A stretch of 64,000 nucleotides of DNA from Verrucomicrobiia bacterium. GTDB taxonomy: Bacteria; Zixibacteria; MSB-5A5; DSPP01. The stretch is from positions 6,516 through 70,515 of the forward strand of contig DATLYY010000064.1 in NCBI GenBank assembly GCA_035574275.1. The letters are read 5' to 3'. The notes beneath the pieces are model-generated. The model did not search any database. It was not told the DNA's origin and worked only from the letters and a program-made list of their open reading frames with translations. The position numbers and the translations under genes were made by a program. Of this stretch, positions 4,801 to 48,023 are shown one piece after another (the stretch's first letter is position 1; each line of letters opens with the position of its first letter).

Positions 4801-5173
4801 AAGCCCCGTCTTCAAACTTCGGGGGGGAGTCCTTGGGGGGGATTATCTTGTACAGAATCTCCCCTTTTTTGGCCAAGCCGAGCTTTTCGCGGGCCACTTT
4901 TTCCACCAGTGCCGGGTTTTTGGCGAGCTCCCGCTTGCGCCATTCCAAATCGGCCTGCACCACGGTCAGATAGCGGTTTTCGCGAATCAGATTCTCCCGT
5001 TTTTCGTAGAGGGAGAGAATGCGCAGAAAACCGAAGTTGCCGGTGGCGAAAAGGTAAAGGAGAACAATGGAGCCGGCCATCCAGAGAAATAAGCGGAAGG
5101 ATTTTCTGGAACCCAAGGCGCGGTCGCGAATCCGGCTGACAAAGGAACTTTCCTTTTCGCGCGGCTTATACAT
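4781..5173 (-). CDS. ftsB: Septum formation initiator (FtsB/DivIC family)
   Basis: A single TM ([17 protein letters not shown]) is followed by a coiled coil and ...[16 protein letters not shown]. The conserved eno-ftsB order is present, and the gene overlaps the eno stop by 8 nt. Confidence 0.65.
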
Positions 5174-6518
5174 TTTTGCTCCGGTAGTTTTCCAGAATCT
5201 TGGGCCCGGCCCAGCGGGCTTGTCCTCTCAATTCGTCCTCGATGGCCAAAAGGCGGTTGTACTTCGATACCCGCTCGCCACGGCAGGGGGCGCCGGTTTT
5301 GATTTGTCCGGTCTGCCAGGCGACGGCCAAATCGGCGATATAGTTATCGGCCGTTTCGCCGGAGCGGTGGGAAATCACGGAGGCGTAGCCGGCGTCCCGC
5401 GCGGCCTGCACGCATTGAAAGGTCTCCGAAAGCGTGCCAATCTGGTTCGGTTTGATTAAAACGGCGTTGGCGACTTTGCGTTGAATTCCCAGTGACAATC
5501 GCTTGGGGTTGGTGACGAACAAATCGTCGCCGACGAGCTGCACTTTTTTCCCCAGCCGCTCGGTCAACAAATTCCAGCCGTCCCAGTCATCTTCCGCCAT
5601 GCCGTCCTCAATGGAGTAAATGGGATAGCTTTTGCACAGGTCCACATAATACGCCACCATCTCCTCCGGGGAAAGCTCTTTTTTCTCCCCTTTCAAAACG
5701 TAGCGATTTTTGCCGGCGTCGAAAAACTCGCTGGCGGCGGGGTCCAGAGCGAATAAAACGTCTTCGCCCAGATTGTAACCCGCTTTTTTGACCGCCCCGG
5801 AAATCAAGTCCAGTGCCTCGCGGTTGGAGCGCAAATTGGGGGCAAAGCCCCCTTCATCACCCACACCGGTGGAAAGGTTTTTTTCCTTCAGCACGGCCTT
5901 CAAGGCCCACAAAATTTCCGAACCCATTCGCAAGGCCTCGCGGAAATTCGGCGTTCCGACGGGGGCGACCATAAACTCCTGCAAGTCGACATTCGAATCG
6001 GCGTGGCGGCCGCCGTTCAAAATGTTCATCATCGGCACGGGGAGCAACGAGGCGTAAACGCCGCCCAGATACTGGTAGAGGGGCTGCATCAAACTGCGGG
6101 CGGCGAGGCGGGCGCAGGCGATGGAGACGCCCAGAATGGCGTTGGCCCCTAACTTGCCCTTGTTTTCGGTGCCGTCCAGCTCGCAAAGAAAGCCGTCGAC
6201 GCTCCCCTGATTGAAAATGTCCGGCTGGCTTTTCAGAAAGGCGGGGGCAATCTGACGTTCCACGTTTTCGATGGCTTTTTTGACACCCATGCCGCGGAAG
6301 CGTTTGGGATCCTTGTCGCGAAGTTCCAATGCTTCGTGGGTGCCGGTTGAGGCTCCCGAAGGGACGGAGGCGGAGGAGATGACGCCATCAGCGGTGCCGG
6401 CAAGAACTTCCAAGGTCGGATTGCCGCGGGAGTCCAGAATTTCCCGCCCCTTCAAAAATGCCAGCTCCACGGGCGCAAAAGTATGCGAAAAAAATTTTTG
6501 GGCAAGGGGTTTTTGCAT
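5166..6518 (-). CDS. eno: Enolase (phosphopyruvate hydratase)
   Basis: [14 protein letters not shown] lies near the N-terminus, with SHRSGETAD and [19 protein letters not shown] motifs further on. I chose ATG 6518. An internal GTG (VELAFLKG) is an alternative start. The 534-aa track ORF is over-extended. Confidence 0.9.
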
Positions 6519-31767: not shown

Positions 31768-32508
31768 ATGAACAAGGTTCTGGAGGATTTGAAGGCGGTG
31801 CCGGGGGTTTCCGGCGTTTTGCTTTTGAACAAAACGGAGGAGACCACCTACCAGCTTCTGCCCGCCAGTTTTTCCATCGAGACCATCAAATCGATTGCCA
31901 TCCGGCTTTTGCAGGTCAGCTACTACTTGAAGCCGGAGGCCCGCTTTAATTTTTCGTTTTCTTCCGGCACGGCTATTTTGCAGAATCTGGAAAAGGCGGC
32001 CCTTTTGGTTTTCACCAAGGGGCCCATCGACGAGGCGATTTTTGATTTGGTGATGAAGAACTCCATCCGTGCCCTGGAGCGCTGGATGGAACGGTACGAG
32101 ACCGTGCGGGAAAAGCTCTCCGGGGAGGCCCTGCTTTCCGAGGAGGAGGCATTGAATCTGTTCTTGCACACGGCCAATTTGATTTCCGGCCACTTCAAGC
32201 AATCCCTGGGGGCCTACCAAGTGACCCAGAACTGGCGCAAATCCCGCGAGGAGCTGGCGGGGGATTTTCCGTTTCATCACCGTCTTTTTGTGGAGACGGG
32301 GGGGAATCTTTCCTTCAAGCCGGCGGAGGAAAAGATTTCCGTGCCGAGTTTGACCGAGTTTTTCGCACGGCTTGTCCACCAATTCATCAAGGGGGCGGTG
32401 GTGGACGGAAGCCGGGAGACGTCGGTTGAAAACCTGACGGCCGAGTTGCGACCCTCGCTGGAAAAAACCAGCTTTTATCGATCGCTGGCGCTTTTGGAAA
32501 GGCGTTAA
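31768..32508 (+). CDS. Roadblock/LC7 (MglB-like) domain protein with an extra C-terminal domain
   Basis: VLEDLKAVPGVSGVLLLNKTEETTYQLLPASFSIETIKSIAIRLLQV...ALLVFTKGPID matches the Robl_LC7 pattern. Confidence 0.55.
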   Translation: MNKVLEDLKAVPGVSGVLLLNKTEETTYQLLPASFSIETIKSIAIRLLQVSYYLKPEARFNFSFSSGTAILQNLEKAALLVFTKGPIDEAIFDLVMKNSIRALERWMERYETVREKLSGEALLSEEEALNLFLHTANLISGHFKQSLGAYQVTQNWRKSREELAGDFPFHHRLFVETGGNLSFKPAEEKISVPSLTEFFARLVHQFIKGAVVDGSRETSVENLTAELRPSLEKTSFYRSLALLERR

Positions 32509-32536
32509 ACGCTCCGAAATCCATTAAAGCCGAGTT

Positions 32537-32563
32537 GCCCGGAGCGGGGGCTCCGGGCCACCC
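32537..32563 (+). repeat. GC-rich hairpin motif, copy 1 (GCCCGGAGC-GGGG-GCTCCGGGC, then CACCC)
   Basis: A 9-bp stem lies 29 nt after the stop at 32508, with no U-tract. 21 of 23 nt are identical to 62199-62221. Confidence 0.5.
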
Positions 32564-32640
32564 CCTGTAAGAAGCTTTCCTCTCTTGGAGGGAGGATTAA
32601 GGCGGGGTTGTTCCGATTTAAAGATCAAGGGTTAGCACCA

Positions 32641-32673
32641 AATAAAAACCCCGCCGTCTTTTGGACAGCGGGG
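32641..32673 (-). terminator. Rho-independent terminator (CCCCGCUGUC-caaaa-GACGGCGGGG-UUUUUAUUU on the minus strand)
   Basis: A 10-bp stem with one G.U pair, followed by a U-tract. It is directional: the plus-strand reading lacks a U-tract. Confidence 0.6.
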
Positions 32674-32879
32674 TGAAAAGAGGAAAGATTCTATTGGAAA
32701 AAAACCTCTCCAAATAGAACGTTAAAGGCGTTTTAAAGCCGCCGTTGGTATTTTGCTGTCGCTACCCAATATCTTCTTGTAGAACAAGAACTTACTGGGG
32801 TCTCGGCGTACGCTCAACCGTCGGGAGCAGCCTTCATCAGTGAATTGTAAGAGGTTTTTCACTATTCTCTCCTCTCGCC
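32641..32879 (-). ncRNA. Candidate structured sRNA of about 240 nt (rod-like, possibly 6S-like) with its own promoter and intrinsic terminator
   Basis: The 600-nt gap has no credible ORF. On the minus strand a promoter (TTGCTT-17-TATACT) ends 5-7 nt before a 5' strand GAGAGGAGAGA (32876-32866). That strand pairs with UCUUUCCUCUU (32688-32678). A second 10-bp helix is AAAAACCUCU (32859-32850) with AGAGGUUUUU (32709-32700). The apical hairpin is at 32799-32765, followed by a 10-bp terminator stem plus UUUUUAUUU. Confidence 0.4.
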
Positions 32880-32883
32880 ATTA

Positions 32884-32912
32884 AGTATAGGGGGGTGGGG
32901 GAGCCAAAGCAA
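32884..32912 (-). promoter_or_regulatory. Sigma70-like promoter: -35 TTGCTT (32912-32907), 17-nt spacer, -10 TATACT (32889-32884)
   Basis: Read from the minus strand. There is no protein gene downstream on this strand. Confidence 0.4.
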
Positions 32913-33120
32913 GGGAAATTATTGGCAAGTTTTTCGCCCGGGGCGGCTTTGACAGCACCACAGGCCGCCTCTATATTCGCCTGCGCCATGATTCAAAATT
33001 CCACCCCGAAAAAAATCATCCCCGCACCGTGCAAAAAATTGAGATTCATGCGACAGGGGACCCCGGAATCATCCAGGAGGACAAACCGATCTTTTACAAA
33101 TCTCTCGAAAAGGAAGCCAG

Positions 33121-34563
33121 ATGCCTGAATACCGAATAGAAAAGGATTCACTCGGAGAATTGAAAGTTCCCGCCAACGCCTACTACGGCATTTTTACCGA
33201 GCGGGCGCGAAAGAACTTCAAACTGACCGGAGAAACGACCCATCCGGTCCTTATCAAATCCTACGCCATCATCAAACAGGCGGCGGCGGAGGCGAATCTC
33301 AAATTAGGACTTCTCCAACCGAAGATAGCCAAGGCCATCATTCAAGCCGCCAAGGAAGTACAGAACGGAAAGTTCAACAACCAGTTTTTAATCGATATGA
33401 TTCAAGCGGGGGCGGGCACCCCGCACCATATGAACACGAACGAGGTCATCGCCAACCGGGCTATCGAGATTTTGGGCGGAAAAAAGGGAGACTATTCGCT
33501 GGTCAATCCCAACGACCATGTCAATTTGGGGCAATCCTCCAACGACGTGACGCCGACCGCCGTGCGCATTGCCTGCCGGATTATGCTGGCCGATTTCATC
33601 AAGGAATTGAAACTGCTGGAAGATGCTTTTGACCTCAAGGCCAAACAGTTTGCCAACATCGTCAAGGTGGGACGCACCCACCTGCAGGATGCCGTTCCCA
33701 TCCGGCTGGGACAGGAGTTCGGCGCGTTTGCCGAAACGGTGCACCGCGGGCGGATGCTCATCGAACTGGCGGCCGACGGGCTTTTGGAACTGGGGTTGGG
33801 GGGCACGGCCATCGGCACGGGCATCAACTCGGACAAACGCTATCCCGACTTGGCGGCGAAAAACATCGCCCGCATCACCGGTTTTAATTTTTACGCCTCG
33901 AAAAATCTGGTTTACATGTGCCAATCGGTGTCCGCCTTCGGAATTCTGGCGGCACGGATGAAGCTGCATGCTTTGGAGATGATAAAGGTTGCCAACGATT
34001 TGATGTACATGTCCGGCGGGCCAAAGGCGGGGCTGAAGGAAATCGACTTAATCGACGTGGAACCGGGGAGCTCCATTATGCCGGGGAAAATCAACCCTTC
34101 CATCGTAGAGCCGTACAAAATGGTCTGTTTGCAGCTTTCCGGCCTTTCGGACGTGGTTTTGTCCACCGTCTCGGAGGGAAATTTTCAACTCAACGTCTGG
34201 ACCCCTTTGATTGCCTACGATTTCATCAAAGGGATCCCGCTTTTGACTAATGGCACCAAAATGTTCCGCACCTTATGCGTATCCGGCATCAAGGCGAACA
34301 AAAAGCGGATTGCCGAACTTTTGGATAACTCGCTGGTCACCGCCACGGCTCTGACCCCCTACATCGGCTACTTGAGCACGGCCCTCTTGGTCAAAGAGTC
34401 CTTGGCCACCGACAAGCCGCTCAAGGTTCTGGCGTTGGAGAAGGGGCTTTTGGAGAAATCGGAATTGGACAAAATCCTTCGCCCCGCCGCACTGACCGAG
34501 CCGGTGCCGGCTGACAAACAACTGCAGAAAAAAATTCAGGAGCGGCTGAAGAGGAAGAAGTAA
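33121..34563 (+). CDS. aspA: Aspartate ammonia-lyase (class II fumarase/aspartase family)
   Basis: The N-terminus is YRIEKDSLGELKVPANAYYGIFTERA. QAGAGTPHHMNTNEV is aspartase-like rather than the FumC QTGSGTQ. The signature GSSIMPGKINP is present. Confidence 0.8.
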   Translation: MPEYRIEKDSLGELKVPANAYYGIFTERARKNFKLTGETTHPVLIKSYAIIKQAAAEANLKLGLLQPKIAKAIIQAAKEVQNGKFNNQFLIDMIQAGAGTPHHMNTNEVIANRAIEILGGKKGDYSLVNPNDHVNLGQSSNDVTPTAVRIACRIMLADFIKELKLLEDAFDLKAKQFANIVKVGRTHLQDAVPIRLGQEFGAFAETVHRGRMLIELAADGLLELGLGGTAIGTGINSDKRYPDLAAKNIARITGFNFYASKNLVYMCQSVSAFGILAARMKLHALEMIKVANDLMYMSGGPKAGLKEIDLIDVEPGSSIMPGKINPSIVEPYKMVCLQLSGLSDVVLSTVSEGNFQLNVWTPLIAYDFIKGIPLLTNGTKMFRTLCVSGIKANKKRIAELLDNSLVTATALTPYIGYLSTALLVKESLATDKPLKVLALEKGLLEKSELDKILRPAALTEPVPADKQLQKKIQERLKRKK

Positions 34564-45448: not shown

Positions 45449-46570
45449 TTAGAACATAAAGCCGGCGCCGAGATTCAGCCGCTCCACTGTGTCGTCCGTG
45501 CCATCCTTCCAGAATTCCCCGTCTGCTTTCAAGACAACGGAAGATAATGGATAAAAAGCCAGTCCGGTAGTCCAAATCCGGCGGAAGGCCCGCCGGACCG
45601 CGGCATATCCCGTCGGCACTTCATGGTTGGTGTTGAAGCGCTCAAAACGGGCAAAGAGGGCCAAATCGGCCGGACTGCCTTCCGGAAAGAGCAGTTTTTT
45701 TAAGCGGTAGGCCGTTTCAACGTACCCTCCCTGCATCGCACTGCCGACCGTCTGGCCAGCAGCCGCGCTTACCTGTTCGGCGCCGTTTATCTCCGTGCGC
45801 ATCAACGTGCCGGAGAACTCGAGCTCTTCGTGGCGAAACTTGATGTCCCCTTCCCAGATTTTCACCAGCACGTAACCCAACGCCGGGTTCGATTGGTCCG
45901 CGCCGCCGATATAGCCGGAGGTGGCAATGGTGAGGTATTTATTGGGGGAAACTTCGACCCGCCCCACACCAGCCCAGTCCTCTATTTTTGATTTCACGCT
46001 TTTGCTCCGGCCACTGCGCAGCCCGTTTAGCGTATTGAACTTGGAGGCGTCCAGCCCGGCCGTGGCATAAGCCCGGAAGGCCACTTTCCCCTGCATCAAG
46101 CGCCCAATCAAGCCGGCGCCGTTTTCCTGCCAGGTGGTGGGAATCATGCTCGTTTCCGTATAGGGCCGCTCGACGGAGTAAAAGAGGGGGGGTTCGTGGA
46201 ATTCATTCAACTGTCCCACCGGCATCAGAACCGAACCGACCCGGGCGGAGACAGTTTTGGTCAAATCAAATTCGAGAAAGCCATATTCAAATTCCGGTTC
46301 GTTGAAGGCATGCTCGAAATCCAGTTCCATATCCATGCGAATCCGGTCGGAAAACTCGTAGGCCAGGCCGATGACCCAGCGGTGAATGTCGATTTCATCC
46401 CCGGCGGATTGTGACATGGCGCCGGCTTTGGGATGGTTAAAGTGCAGTTCGCCATAGCCGTGCAGACGCCAAGGGGGCGTTTGAGCTTCCTCCTCCTGAG
46501 CATACGCAGGGAGGGCCAAAAAAGAACTGAAAACCAGCGCAACGGCGTATTTATATCGAAAAGAAACCAT
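45449..46570 (-). CDS. Outer-membrane porin-like beta-barrel
   Basis: The signal peptide ends ...ALPAYAQ. The sequence shows alternating strands and a C-terminal GAGFMF. Confidence 0.65.
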   Translation of the reverse strand: MVSFRYKYAVALVFSSFLALPAYAQEEEAQTPPWRLHGYGELHFNHPKAGAMSQSAGDEIDIHRWVIGLAYEFSDRIRMDMELDFEHAFNEPEFEYGFLEFDLTKTVSARVGSVLMPVGQLNEFHEPPLFYSVERPYTETSMIPTTWQENGAGLIGRLMQGKVAFRAYATAGLDASKFNTLNGLRSGRSKSVKSKIEDWAGVGRVEVSPNKYLTIATSGYIGGADQSNPALGYVLVKIWEGDIKFRHEELEFSGTLMRTEINGAEQVSAAAGQTVGSAMQGGYVETAYRLKKLLFPEGSPADLALFARFERFNTNHEVPTGYAAVRRAFRRIWTTGLAFYPLSSVVLKADGEFWKDGTDDTVERLNLGAGFMF

Positions 46571-46590
46571 TCAAACTATTCTGGTGAAGT

Positions 46591-46779
46591 TTATAGTCCA
46601 GCCAGCCCCTTGATTGCCAAATAGGGAAGAATGATGTAAAGAATGGAGTCGCGCACGGCGTAGAAGGCGATAATCACCACCAGCCAGCGCCAGCCCTTTT
46701 TCTTGAAATGGGCGATTGTTTCTTTGCGCCCAAGCTTTCCTTCCGGCAACAGCCCCCAGCGAACCAGAAATCTCTTCAA
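46591..46779 (-). CDS. Small membrane protein (hypothetical, 62 aa)
   Basis: It has one clear TM (WLVVIIAFYAV...ILYIILPYLAI). Its start abuts the ABM gene stop. Confidence 0.4.
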   Translation of the reverse strand: MKRFLVRWGLLPEGKLGRKETIAHFKKKGWRWLVVIIAFYAVRDSILYIILPYLAIKGLAGL

Positions 46780-47078
46780 GTCGCCAGAACCTCGAAAATT
46801 TCCACTTTGGAGGTCAGAATCGATTTCCCGTTTTCCGTAAACTCCTTGACCCGCTGGTGGCCCTCCCGGTATTCGGAACTCCCGACCCAGGCCTCAAAAT
46901 CCTCTTTTTTTTCCCAGTGGGTCATCACCAAATAGGCATCCCCTTCCAGCGGTTTCAAAATTTCGGCCTTGATAAAGCCCGGTCGGCGGTCCACCGCTTT
47001 TTTGCGGGTTTTGAAAACCTCCTCAAAGCGTCCCCGCCATTTTTCGGGAACGGTCATTCGGTTTATCATTACAAACAT
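46776..47078 (-). CDS. ABM-domain monooxygenase (IsdG/HmoA-like candidate)
   Basis: ATG 47078 follows GGGGAGG. MFVMINRMTVPEKWRGRFEEVF...AYLVMTHWEKKEDFEAWVGSSEY is an ABM ferredoxin-like pattern. Confidence 0.65.
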   Translation of the reverse strand: MFVMINRMTVPEKWRGRFEEVFKTRKKAVDRRPGFIKAEILKPLEGDAYLVMTHWEKKEDFEAWVGSSEYREGHQRVKEFTENGKSILTSKVEIFEVLAT

Positions 47079-47151
47079 TTCTTTATCTACCTCCCCTGCT
47101 GTATTGTTATTTGTTTCACAAGAAACAAGCCCAAGTCGCATACGGGTGGGA

Positions 47152-47180
47152 AATAAAGGATAAGCAAAATTCCTTGTCAA
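47152..47180 (-). promoter_or_regulatory. Sigma70-like promoter for the ABM-porin-feo gene string (TTGACA-17-TTTATT)
   Basis: The -35 is at 47180-47175 and the -10 at 47157-47152 on the minus strand. The leader contains the hairpin TTGTTTC-ttgt-GAAACAA. Confidence 0.35.
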
Positions 47181-47252
47181 GATAAATGTTAAATTGCAAG
47201 CCATTGTTATTCAGTGGCTTACATTGATTATGACAAATAGCATATTATTTGG

Positions 47253-47307
47253 CGACTGAATTAGTCGGTAATTTAATAATGACTACGACTATTTTAGTCG
47301 GTATTTT
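47253..47307. promoter_or_regulatory. Two copies of the inverted repeat CGACT-N5-AGTCG followed by GTA, spaced 33 bp apart (candidate operator pair)
   Basis: The copies are CGACTGAATTAGTCGGTA (47253-47270) and CGACTATTTTAGTCGGTA (47286-47303). They lie in the AT-rich region upstream of the iron-uptake locus. Confidence 0.4.
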
Positions 47308-47327
47308 TGGTATCGATTTTTCTGATC

Positions 47328-47921
47328 TTAACGAATCTTAATCAAGTTTTGGTACTTTTTCCAAATCGGCAACCAATCCTCCTTGAAAACTGCAATCAGG
47401 ATTTCATCGTGATATTTTCCGTTGCGGAAAATCTGTTTTTTGCGGACGCCCTCGACTTTGTAGCCGCATTTCAGGTTGTATTGCAAACTACGTTTGTTGA
47501 AAGCGTACACGGACGAATTAATTTTCCGGAGGTTCAAGGTGTTAAAGGCGTAGTTCAACAAGGTCATTTTGGCGTCCGTGCCGTACCCTTTTCCCCAGTA
47601 TTTCTTTTCTCCAATCAAAGCGCCGGTCGAAGCCGTCCGGTCTTTGGCATTGATGTGAACGAGCGCCATATTGCCAATCAGCTTTCCGTCCAGGGTTTCT
47701 ATCCCCAGAATGATTTCGTTTGGATTGTTGGCCATCCGGTCAAACCATTCCTCCTCCTTTTTTTCAGTAACGGGAAAATAAACGAGCAGATACTGGTTCA
47801 CCTCCGGGTCGTTTATCCAGCGCAGGCAAAGTTCGAAATCGGTTGCCTTCCGCAAGGGGCGGAGGATGGTCTTTTTCCCCTTCAAGAACACAAGTTTTGG
47901 TCTGTTGGTGGTTTTCCGCAT
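47328..47921 (-). CDS. GNAT family N-acetyltransferase (RimJ/RimL-like)
   Basis: Contains LRPLRKATDFELCLRWINDPEV...IGNMALVHI...GALIGEKKYWGKGYGTDA...N.RSL. I chose ATG 47921. The upstream 212 codons of the track ORF are antisense to mlaE. Confidence 0.75.
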   Translation of the reverse strand: MRKTTNRPKLVFLKGKKTILRPLRKATDFELCLRWINDPEVNQYLLVYFPVTEKKEEEWFDRMANNPNEIILGIETLDGKLIGNMALVHINAKDRTASTGALIGEKKYWGKGYGTDAKMTLLNYAFNTLNLRKINSSVYAFNKRSLQYNLKCGYKVEGVRKKQIFRNGKYHDEILIAVFKEDWLPIWKKYQNLIKIR

Positions 47922-48023
47922 TTGATTTCCAATTAGAGCCAAAGCATAAAAAGAAGCAAGAGGTCCGATTTCCCCTCTTTTCTTATTGCCAGCCAGAGTT
48001 GAAGCCGTTAATTTGACCGTTCG

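Follow-up and report, generated by a model that had tools for sequence, protein, structure and literature searches.

The 64,000-nt stretch of contig DATLYY010000064.1 analysed here (positions 6,516 to 70,515 of the forward strand; hereafter the window) contains a 612-bp gap between a gene encoding a 246-amino-acid protein (31768-32508, plus strand) and an aspartate ammonia-lyase-type gene (33121-34563, plus strand, referred to below as the aspartase gene). We conclude, with very little doubt, that the minus strand of this gap carries the gene for a stand-alone, abundant and structured non-coding RNA of a Zixibacteria lineage. Transcription from a sigma-70-type promoter would start at about 32877-32879 and stop near 32641, where there is an intrinsic terminator, so that the primary transcript would be approximately 237 nt long. 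In the RNA body of about 200 nt (32876-32678), the 5' and 3' ends pair to close a long, irregular hairpin. A preliminary description of the window, made from the nucleotide sequence alone, had proposed a minus-strand structured small RNA with its own promoter, rod-like fold and terminator, and this proposal is borne out by the conservation of the locus as a unit, by covariation and by metatranscriptome contigs.

The locus shows the attributes of an independent small RNA gene, namely conserved and regularly spaced -35 and -10 boxes, a transcript 5' end just downstream of them, and a stem-loop followed by a U run. The -35 box TTGCTT (32907-32912, minus strand) and the -10 box TATACT (32884-32889, minus strand), 17 nt past it, lie where the preliminary description had placed them (32912-32884), and both hexamers with their 17-nt spacing are kept in nine of nine close homologues, the spacer sequence being variable. 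In the distant homologue L023 the promoter reads TTGCCT-16-TATACT, the -10 box thus being the same in all ten homologues; contigs from runs X3 and X18 also show it in their unmatched ends. The window has a single instance of TTGCTT-17-TATACT, and 100 shuffles have none; with only 8 of 12 consensus positions matching, the site was left uncalled by a generic promoter scan. At the other end of the gene, the intrinsic terminator (32641-32674, minus strand) consists of an 11-bp stem (32674-32648) followed by UUUUUAUUU; as anticipated, it is strand-specific, being called by the terminator scan on the minus strand only, and its stem covaries among homologues in an RNAalifold alignment of seven close sequences.

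Metagenomes from soil, sediment, wetland, freshwater and hot springs, at least 20 in number, contain near-identical copies of a 351-bp stretch. Pattern matching on metagenome contigs (one scan), together with contig look-ups via both neighbouring proteins, yielded nine close full or partial homologues (L010, L012-L018, L022, L025), and one distant homologue, L023, was also found (RNA at 5126-5321, minus strand; 52 bits in nhmmer), whose genome encodes a 246-aa protein only 33-34% identical to that of the window. All of them, the distant one included, lie on Zixibacteria-like metagenome contigs. The flanking proteins place the window in the candidate phylum Zixibacteria, the aspartase being 85-95% identical to proteins labelled Zixibacteria. 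Across the nine close and one distant loci, which represent four gene contexts, conservation sets in at the -35 box and ceases at the terminator, and no alignment is possible outside these limits; variation is seen in both flanks, in the promoter spacer and in the 6-7 nt that separate the -10 box from GAGAGG. Consistent with these boundaries, contigs from related strains differ from the window at about one position in 32640-32894 and at about 30 in the next 225 nt (32895-33120), and the 124 nt past the terminator (32516-32639) are swapped in related strains for an unrelated 75-76 nt.

The gene upstream of the RNA varies among loci and may encode aspartase (window, L010 and L022), aconitase (L012, L015, L016 and L017), an Rrf2-like protein (a label given from the N-terminal sequence only) or ACPS. 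Because conservation is bounded by the -35 box and the terminator and the upstream neighbour differs by locus, the RNA gene is an autonomous transcription unit, neither a leader nor a 3' untranslated region (UTR). The gene also changes its place within the lineage, since the gap downstream of the 246-aa gene in L019 (4742-5098) has no copy of the RNA, while the contig of its likely relative L018 carries the RNA elsewhere, between the Rrf2-like gene and a 625-aa gene. Gaps without an RNA copy were likewise observed downstream of the 246-aa gene in L028 (3203-3391) and L029 (1859-1999). A search for remoter relatives via this neighbour found no RNA beside the gene in L019-L021, L028 and L029, and when synteny was followed via the aspartase gene, the upstream regions of the two closest genome records (L001 and L002) proved non-homologous. 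A degenerate core pattern gave three matches in viral contigs, which were discarded as chance matches showing no similarity.

The RNA sequence is present in five metatranscriptome runs from soil, sediment and freshwater sediment. Four of the RNA contigs cover the RNA unit only, namely 32675-32877 in run X27, 32677-32879 in X26, 32672-32838 in X29 and 32673-32806 in X25. Two of them, which are independent, thus begin at 32877 and 32879, 5-7 nt past the -10 box and in agreement with the start that had been predicted at 32877-32879 on the minus strand; DNA contigs continue into the promoter. When 20 kb of the window was compared with X27 (81 Mb) and X28 (48 Mb), no full-length match other than the RNA appeared; whatever else matched consisted of pieces of 34-57 nt from conserved protein motifs. 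This points to high cellular abundance, in a qualitative sense, given that only assembled contigs of the RNA runs were used and contig depth reflects expression poorly. Housekeeping RNAs typically exceed neighbouring mRNAs in abundance by a wide margin. On the 3' side, the X28 contig reaches 32663 and the X26 contig extends across a terminator hairpin. A processed 3' end ahead of the terminator, to which the contig ends at 32672-32677 might point, is not established, as DNA contigs are interrupted at the same place.

The predicted folding energy of the minus strand is -89.5 kcal/mol (z = -5.87), a value matched by none of 200 shuffles, and that of the plus strand is -75.7 kcal/mol (z = -3.46); a plus-strand reading was rejected on this weaker fold and on seven G·U pairs of the rod, which would turn into C·A mismatches. 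From the ends inwards, the rod comprises the closing helix P1, internal loop 1 (IL1), helix P2, a 12x12-nt internal loop 2 (IL2), helices P3 to P6 extending over about 19 positions, a conserved 17x15-nt loop (the upper loop) and a variable apical stem. All of its strands are given here on the minus strand. P1 is an 11-bp helix that joins GAGAGGAGAGA (32866-32876) to UCUUUCCUCUU (32678-32688), exactly as described beforehand (32876-32866 with 32688-32678), and it is supported by covariation, given that in L023 GAGAGGAGAGA/UCUUUCCUCUU becomes CUGGACGAGGGU/ACCCUCCUCCAG with both-side changes at six pairs in a manual alignment and at three in a MAFFT alignment. L023 was also seen to be without a separate terminator hairpin, its P1 3' strand being followed directly by UUUUUUAUUU (U6AUUU), and in that homologue the long-range closing helix may itself act as the terminator stem.

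The next helix, P2, had been described as a perfect 10-bp helix (32859-32850 with 32709-32700); it is present and extends to 12 bp, between GAAAAACCUCUU (32849-32860) and GAGAGGUUUUUU (32699-32710, pairing as 32860-32849 with 32710-32699), in competition with two local hairpins of near-equal predicted energy that are considered below. In L023, AAAAACCUCU/AGAGGUUUUU is replaced by AAAAACCUUUC/GAAAGG[GA]UUUUU, the helix is lengthened to 17 bp, and one C-G pair has undergone a compensatory change to U-A. Above P2, both strands of IL2 are unpaired in the rod model: the 5' strand ACAAUUCACUGA (32837-32848) carries insertions and substitutions in L015 and L018, and the 3' strand ACGUUCUAUUUG (32711-32722) provides the 5' arm of a 3' hairpin in the alternative fold. 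P3, the 7-bp helix UGAAGGC/GCCUUUA that had been offered as possible (32830-32836 and 32723-32729, pairing as 32836-32830 with 32729-32723), is present, with 100% of alignment cells paired and its last pair changed from C-G to U-A in L023.

Beyond P3, the preliminary description had envisaged a mostly unpaired centre of about 30x35 nt, and only part of this view stands. Its lower part is a covarying segmented helix, P4-P6, formed by GCUCCCGACGGU (32817-32828) and ACCAACGGCGGC (32738-32749, pairing as 32828-32817 with 32749-32738), and what remains open is the upper loop of about 17x15 nt (32816-32800 and 32764-32750). Within P4-P6, position 32819/32747 alternates among G-C, A-U and G-U, an A/A mismatch is replaced by C-G or G-C in L015, L025 and L023, and in L023 the mismatches become G-C and C-G pairs, which yields a continuous 12-bp helix. 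An asymmetric 3' bulge, UUUAAAAC (32730-32737), is conserved and reads UGUAAAA in L023. The small hairpin GGCG-N9-CGCC suggested for the 3' side of the centre had to be abandoned, as it competes with the supported helices P3-P5 and is missing from L023.

Between the two lineages, no sequence is better conserved than the upper loop, with 12 of 17 and about 14 of 19 positions identical. Its 5' strand UGAGCGUACGCCGAGAC (32800-32816) is near-invariant in the close homologues and identical in L023 at the 12 of 17 positions just mentioned, and its 3' strand UAGCGACAGCAAAAU (32750-32764) is conserved; the pairing predicted inside the loop by RNAalifold shows no variation among close homologues. The 5' strand of the close homologues (32816-32800) was observed to hold an 8-nt palindrome, GCGUACGC, the L023 counterpart of which reads GCAGACGC, so that the palindrome is not conserved. 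The apical stem-loop (32765-32799) has the two-part architecture that had been described for 32799-32765 (P7 of 7 bp, a 2x2 loop, P8 of 7 bp and a 3-nt loop), and it shows the most covariation of any helix: among the loci and the metagenome and metatranscriptome variants, A-U/G-C, U-A/C-G and C-G/A-U exchanges were found. In L023 the apical stem has shrunk to CCCC-ACCC-GGGG, the stem length thus ranging from 4 to 14 bp, and no GNRA apical loops occur in this RNA.

Covariation, which had been put forward as a check on the proposed RNA, was assessed on the homologues in three alignments. With seven close sequences, RNAalifold recovered the closing helix, the 7-bp helix, the segmented helix above it, the apical stem and the terminator, including six pairs with compensatory changes. 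In a MAFFT alignment of ten sequences, 97.1% of cells are paired and 10 of 53 pairs show both-side changes, against 4.1±1.1 in shuffled alignments (none of 500 reached the observed value) and 1-4 in slid controls. A manual structural alignment of 13 rows, which adds three metatranscriptome variants, gave 92.8% of cells paired and both-side changes at 16 of 59 pairs, against 6.9±1.5 after shuffling (again none of 500) and 0-7 in slid controls. Helices P1, P2, P3-P6 and P7-P8 of the rod are therefore backed by covariation.

RNAfold favours a four-way junction over the rod in the case of the window and of most close homologues. Two hairpins then take the place of P2, one on the 5' side (32863-32858 with 32844-32839) and one of 13 bp on the 3' side (32719-32706 with 32701-32689). 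The forced rod and the forced alternative are -3.5 to +3.6 kcal/mol apart in nine of nine close homologues, and the ensemble probabilities in the window are about 0.36 for P2 and 0.63 for the 5' hairpin. The alternative hairpins are invariant in the close homologues, so that covariation cannot test them. In L023, the minimum-energy fold is the full rod, and a different alternative forms when the 5' strand of P2 is blocked. The evolutionary evidence favours P2, because L023 does not preserve the alternative hairpins and folds into the rod at minimum energy; the fold switch is a prediction of the folding model for the clade of the window only.

To place the RNA among described families, all 4227 families of Rfam 15 were searched at the gathering score, with no match either in the 64-kb window or in the 8 related loci, which together make up about 60 kb. 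At E<=10, searches of 32300-33300, 32670-32882 and L023 5100-5350 returned only weak chance or terminator-driven matches, among them none to 6S, 6S-Flavo, Ms1, signal recognition particle (SRP) RNA, transfer-messenger RNA (tmRNA) or RNase P RNA, and ARAGORN, which looks for tmRNA, gave no prediction in the window. The same set-up gave E. coli ssrS, the positive control, 139.8 bits (E = 2e-30) on RF00013. In the literature searched, no paper was found that describes non-coding RNAs of Zixibacteria or that connects the phylum with 6S. The RNA is thus not a formal member of the 6S family; it is a new RNA family in an uncultured phylum. For the preliminary suggestion that it might be 6S-like, the Rfam search brought no RF00013 match at E<=10, while the size, the rod, the order of elements and the abundance are compatible with 6S, and the 6S label is a reasonable hypothesis by analogy.

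We postulate, tentatively and at somewhat less than even probability, that the best single mechanism is that of a 6S-like RNA polymerase decoy. 6S RNAs are rods of about 200 nt with an end-closed stem, an apical stem, interrupted arms and a central bubble, and it takes covariance models to recognise them as one family; their target is the housekeeping holoenzyme, and they act as templates for short product RNAs, the synthesis of which unwinds the bubble-adjacent helix and triggers refolding of the 3' side (PMC8876501). By analogy, the rod described here would, as a mimic of an open promoter, keep the housekeeping RNA polymerase holoenzyme occupied, with an internal loop acting as the central bubble. 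IL2 would fit this role best by position, its 5' strand being a candidate for the 5' side of a 6S-type bubble, and this strand together with P2 would template a short product RNA. Synthesis of the product would unwind P2, and the 3' strand so freed, which builds the alternative 3' hairpin, would refold into that hairpin and release the polymerase. What the data show are the boundaries of the gene, its transcription and abundance, the helices and the lack of a coding function, whereas binding to the polymerase, the assignment of the bubble, the making of a product RNA and the refolding step are inferences.

Several observations speak for such a decoy. The RNA is a rod of about 200 nt with interrupted arms, as seen from the covariation-backed helices and from the full-rod minimum-energy fold of L023, and it is abundant in the qualitative sense given above. 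IL2 lies about 30-45 nt from the 5' end of the RNA, near the place that corresponds to the product-RNA start of B. subtilis 6S-1, nt 40 (PMC8876501), and the competition between P2 and the 13-bp 3'-side hairpin is of the kind used in 6S release. The absence of any 6S match from the 64-kb window and the related loci also counts in its favour, but only weakly.

Other observations weigh against the decoy. Neither the window copy nor L023 matches RF00013 or any other family, even at E<=10. The identity of the bubble is ambiguous: both candidates, IL2 (12x12 nt, 32848-32837 and 32722-32711) and the upper loop (17x15 nt), are conserved, with weak predicted internal pairs that are invariant, and the best-conserved loop is the upper one, which in L023 lies under an apical stem of only 4 bp, although truncated 6S-1 RNAs with short arms still function in vitro (PMC8876501). 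P2 is A/U-rich, which implies that a product-RNA hybrid would be weak. Finally, the alternative 5' and 3' hairpins have no covariation behind them and are not kept in L023, and the predicted two-state behaviour may therefore be incidental.

The prominence of the upper loop would be accommodated by a protein-binding or scaffold RNA of undescribed type, unrelated to RNA polymerase, in which the upper loop and the small apical hairpin would form the binding site and the rod would be a handle. Such an RNA, which we consider somewhat unlikely, would be in keeping with an upper loop that is best conserved between deep lineages and surrounded by covarying helices, with an apical stem whose length varies freely, and with abundance in the absence of any known family match. 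It has no linked candidate partner, however, since the sole recurrent neighbour is convergent and has a Roadblock/LC7 fold, which is not an RNA-binding fold, and it leaves the conserved IL1 and IL2 and the near-equal alternative fold unexplained. It is also a default hypothesis that is hard to test computationally.

The alternative fold acquires a different meaning if the RNA is a trans-acting base-pairing regulator, in which C/U-rich, anti-Shine-Dalgarno-like stretches (AAAAACCUCUUAC at 32859-32847 and UCUUUCCUCUUUUC at 32688-32675, minus strand) would pair with ribosome-binding sites of mRNAs and the fold would set their exposure. The two-hairpin fold places ACCUCUU, which is invariant in close homologues, in a 14-nt hairpin loop, the gene has its own promoter and Rho-independent terminator as in classic small regulatory RNAs, and central-metabolism genes (aconitase, aspartase) often adjoin it. 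Nevertheless, the covariation-supported rod pairs both stretches within P1 and P2, and L023 has a P2 of 17 bp and the rod as its minimum-energy fold. Conservation covers the whole molecule, beyond short seeds, and an extended rod of about 200 nt is untypical of seed-type regulatory RNAs. No target was identified, and the upstream neighbours vary, as aspA, aconitase, Rrf2-like and ACPS genes all occur in this position. We therefore regard a regulator of this type as unlikely.

A cis-acting partner of the convergent Roadblock-type operon, working through antisense read-through or an interaction at the 3' ends, would account for the convergent arrangement of the RNA and the 246-aa gene in eight loci (window, L010, L012, L014, L015, L022, L025 and the distant L023). 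This arrangement is missing at five loci, given that in L016 and L018 the RNA has other neighbours and in L019, L028 and L029 the 246-aa gene occurs without the RNA. Moreover, the intervening spacer of 130-380 nt is variable and even swapped between strains, and the two transcripts do not overlap if both end where predicted, which makes this option very improbable. A functional link between the RNA and its 246-aa neighbour was likewise rejected, as the Roadblock/LC7 fold carries no RNA-binding hint and conserved gene order is the only connection.

A small protein gene between the promoter and the terminator is hardly credible: the 46-codon open reading frame (ORF) at 32862-32722 has a plausible start, with GTG preceded at 6 nt by GGAG as ribosome-binding site, and is open in six of seven homologues checked, but it is broken in L015 by a stop at codon 5 and a frameshift, substitutions among strain variants (about 10, 5 and 6 at codon positions 1, 2 and 3) show no third-position bias, its apical-stem region undergoes radical amino-acid changes while base pairing stays, and L023 deletes 24 nt of it. 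It was rejected on the L015 break, the substitution pattern and the L023 deletion, in line with the earlier statement that the gap holds no credible ORF.

With respect to the genes around the RNA, the aspartase gene encodes Lyase_1 and FumaraseC_C domains. A strong sigma-70-like site, TTGACA-17-TATATT (32949-32977, plus strand; 11 of 12 positions), lies 144 nt upstream of its ATG (33121), a position that implies a 5' UTR of about 135 nt for the aspartase transcript; the site faces away from the RNA promoter, the two -35 boxes being about 37 nt apart. The 246-aa protein has no Pfam match. Its AlphaFold model (mean predicted local distance difference test, pLDDT, 81.8) shows an N-terminal Roadblock/LC7 fold followed by a helical C-terminal half, with a best E of 5.9e-4 and a target-normalised TM-score of up to 0.70 in Foldseek. 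The family comprises about 30 clusters, of which the labelled ones are Zixibacteria, and the gene ends a conserved row encoding SpoIIE/HATPase_c_2, STAS, TPR, 287-aa, 202-aa and 246-aa proteins, which looks like a partner-switching signalling module. In the spacer that separates it from the RNA gene (32516-32639) there is a perfect 9-bp GC hairpin, GCCCGGAGC-CCCC-GCUCCGGGC (32558-32537), with no T run, a possible stop signal for the 246-aa gene; in L023 the equivalent spacer is filled with GC-rich palindromes of a similar kind. Elsewhere in the window, low G+C stretches were noted at 1-2000 (0.43) and 46001-48000 (0.48), against a window average of about 0.55.

The Zixibacteria are uncultured, and the RNA is abundant enough to surface in soil, sediment and freshwater-sediment metatranscriptomes. 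If it is a 6S analogue, the promoter-mimic strategy would be extended to a lineage in which the standard model fails, and there would be a second deep example, besides Ms1, of 6S-like RNAs that escape homology searches. If it is not, the locus encodes a new abundant RNA whose conserved loop hints at a partner. Either way, a new RNA family gains a seed alignment, and the 612-bp gap no longer counts as "empty" in the annotation.

Among known systems, one close parallel in architecture is 6S RNA (SsrS; RF00013), which the RNA resembles in being about 200 nt long, encoded by an independent gene and highly abundant, and in having a helix beside an internal loop (P2) with a competing 3'-side hairpin. 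Taken element by element, the closing stem of the Rfam 6S model would correspond to P1, its 12/13-nt loop to IL1, its helix of about 10 bp to P2 (12 bp), its 16/13-nt bubble to IL2 (12/12 nt), its arm of about 17 bp to P3-P6 (16 pairs over about 19 positions), its small conserved loops to the conserved upper loop, and its apical hairpin to the apical hairpin of the present RNA. Unlike 6S RNA, the Zixibacteria RNA obtains no score on the 6S covariance model even at E<=10 and contains no sequence block conserved in 6S; where 6S has one obvious central bubble, it has two loops of considerable size, the better conserved of them near the apex, and its primary transcript bears its own intrinsic terminator.

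Rfam also includes lineage-specific structured RNA genes to which no function is assigned. Like these orphan small RNA motifs of comparative genomics, the RNA is conserved, covarying, independently transcribed, restricted to one lineage and present in metagenomes and metatranscriptomes, but unlike the catalogued ones it is not among the 4227 families of Rfam 15 and comes from the uncultured Zixibacteria. Further parallels are Ms1 of Actinobacteria and 6S-Flavo (RF01685), precedents for phylum-confined, rod-shaped 6S-like RNAs that the canonical 6S model misses; some RNAs of this type are known or proposed to bind RNA polymerase, and Ms1 is reported to bind the polymerase core, not the holoenzyme (PMC9130861). 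The present RNA differs from both in having no sequence or model similarity to them and no Rfam match of any kind. It is possible, but in our judgement doubtful, that it is the first representative of a new Zixibacteria-specific class of abundant housekeeping RNA, which would be either a two-state rod that is no homologue of 6S and has a partner-binding upper loop or, as with Ms1, an RNA polymerase decoy of an origin independent of 6S. On the analogy drawn here, the RNA would be a lineage-specific counterpart of Ms1 and 6S-Flavo.

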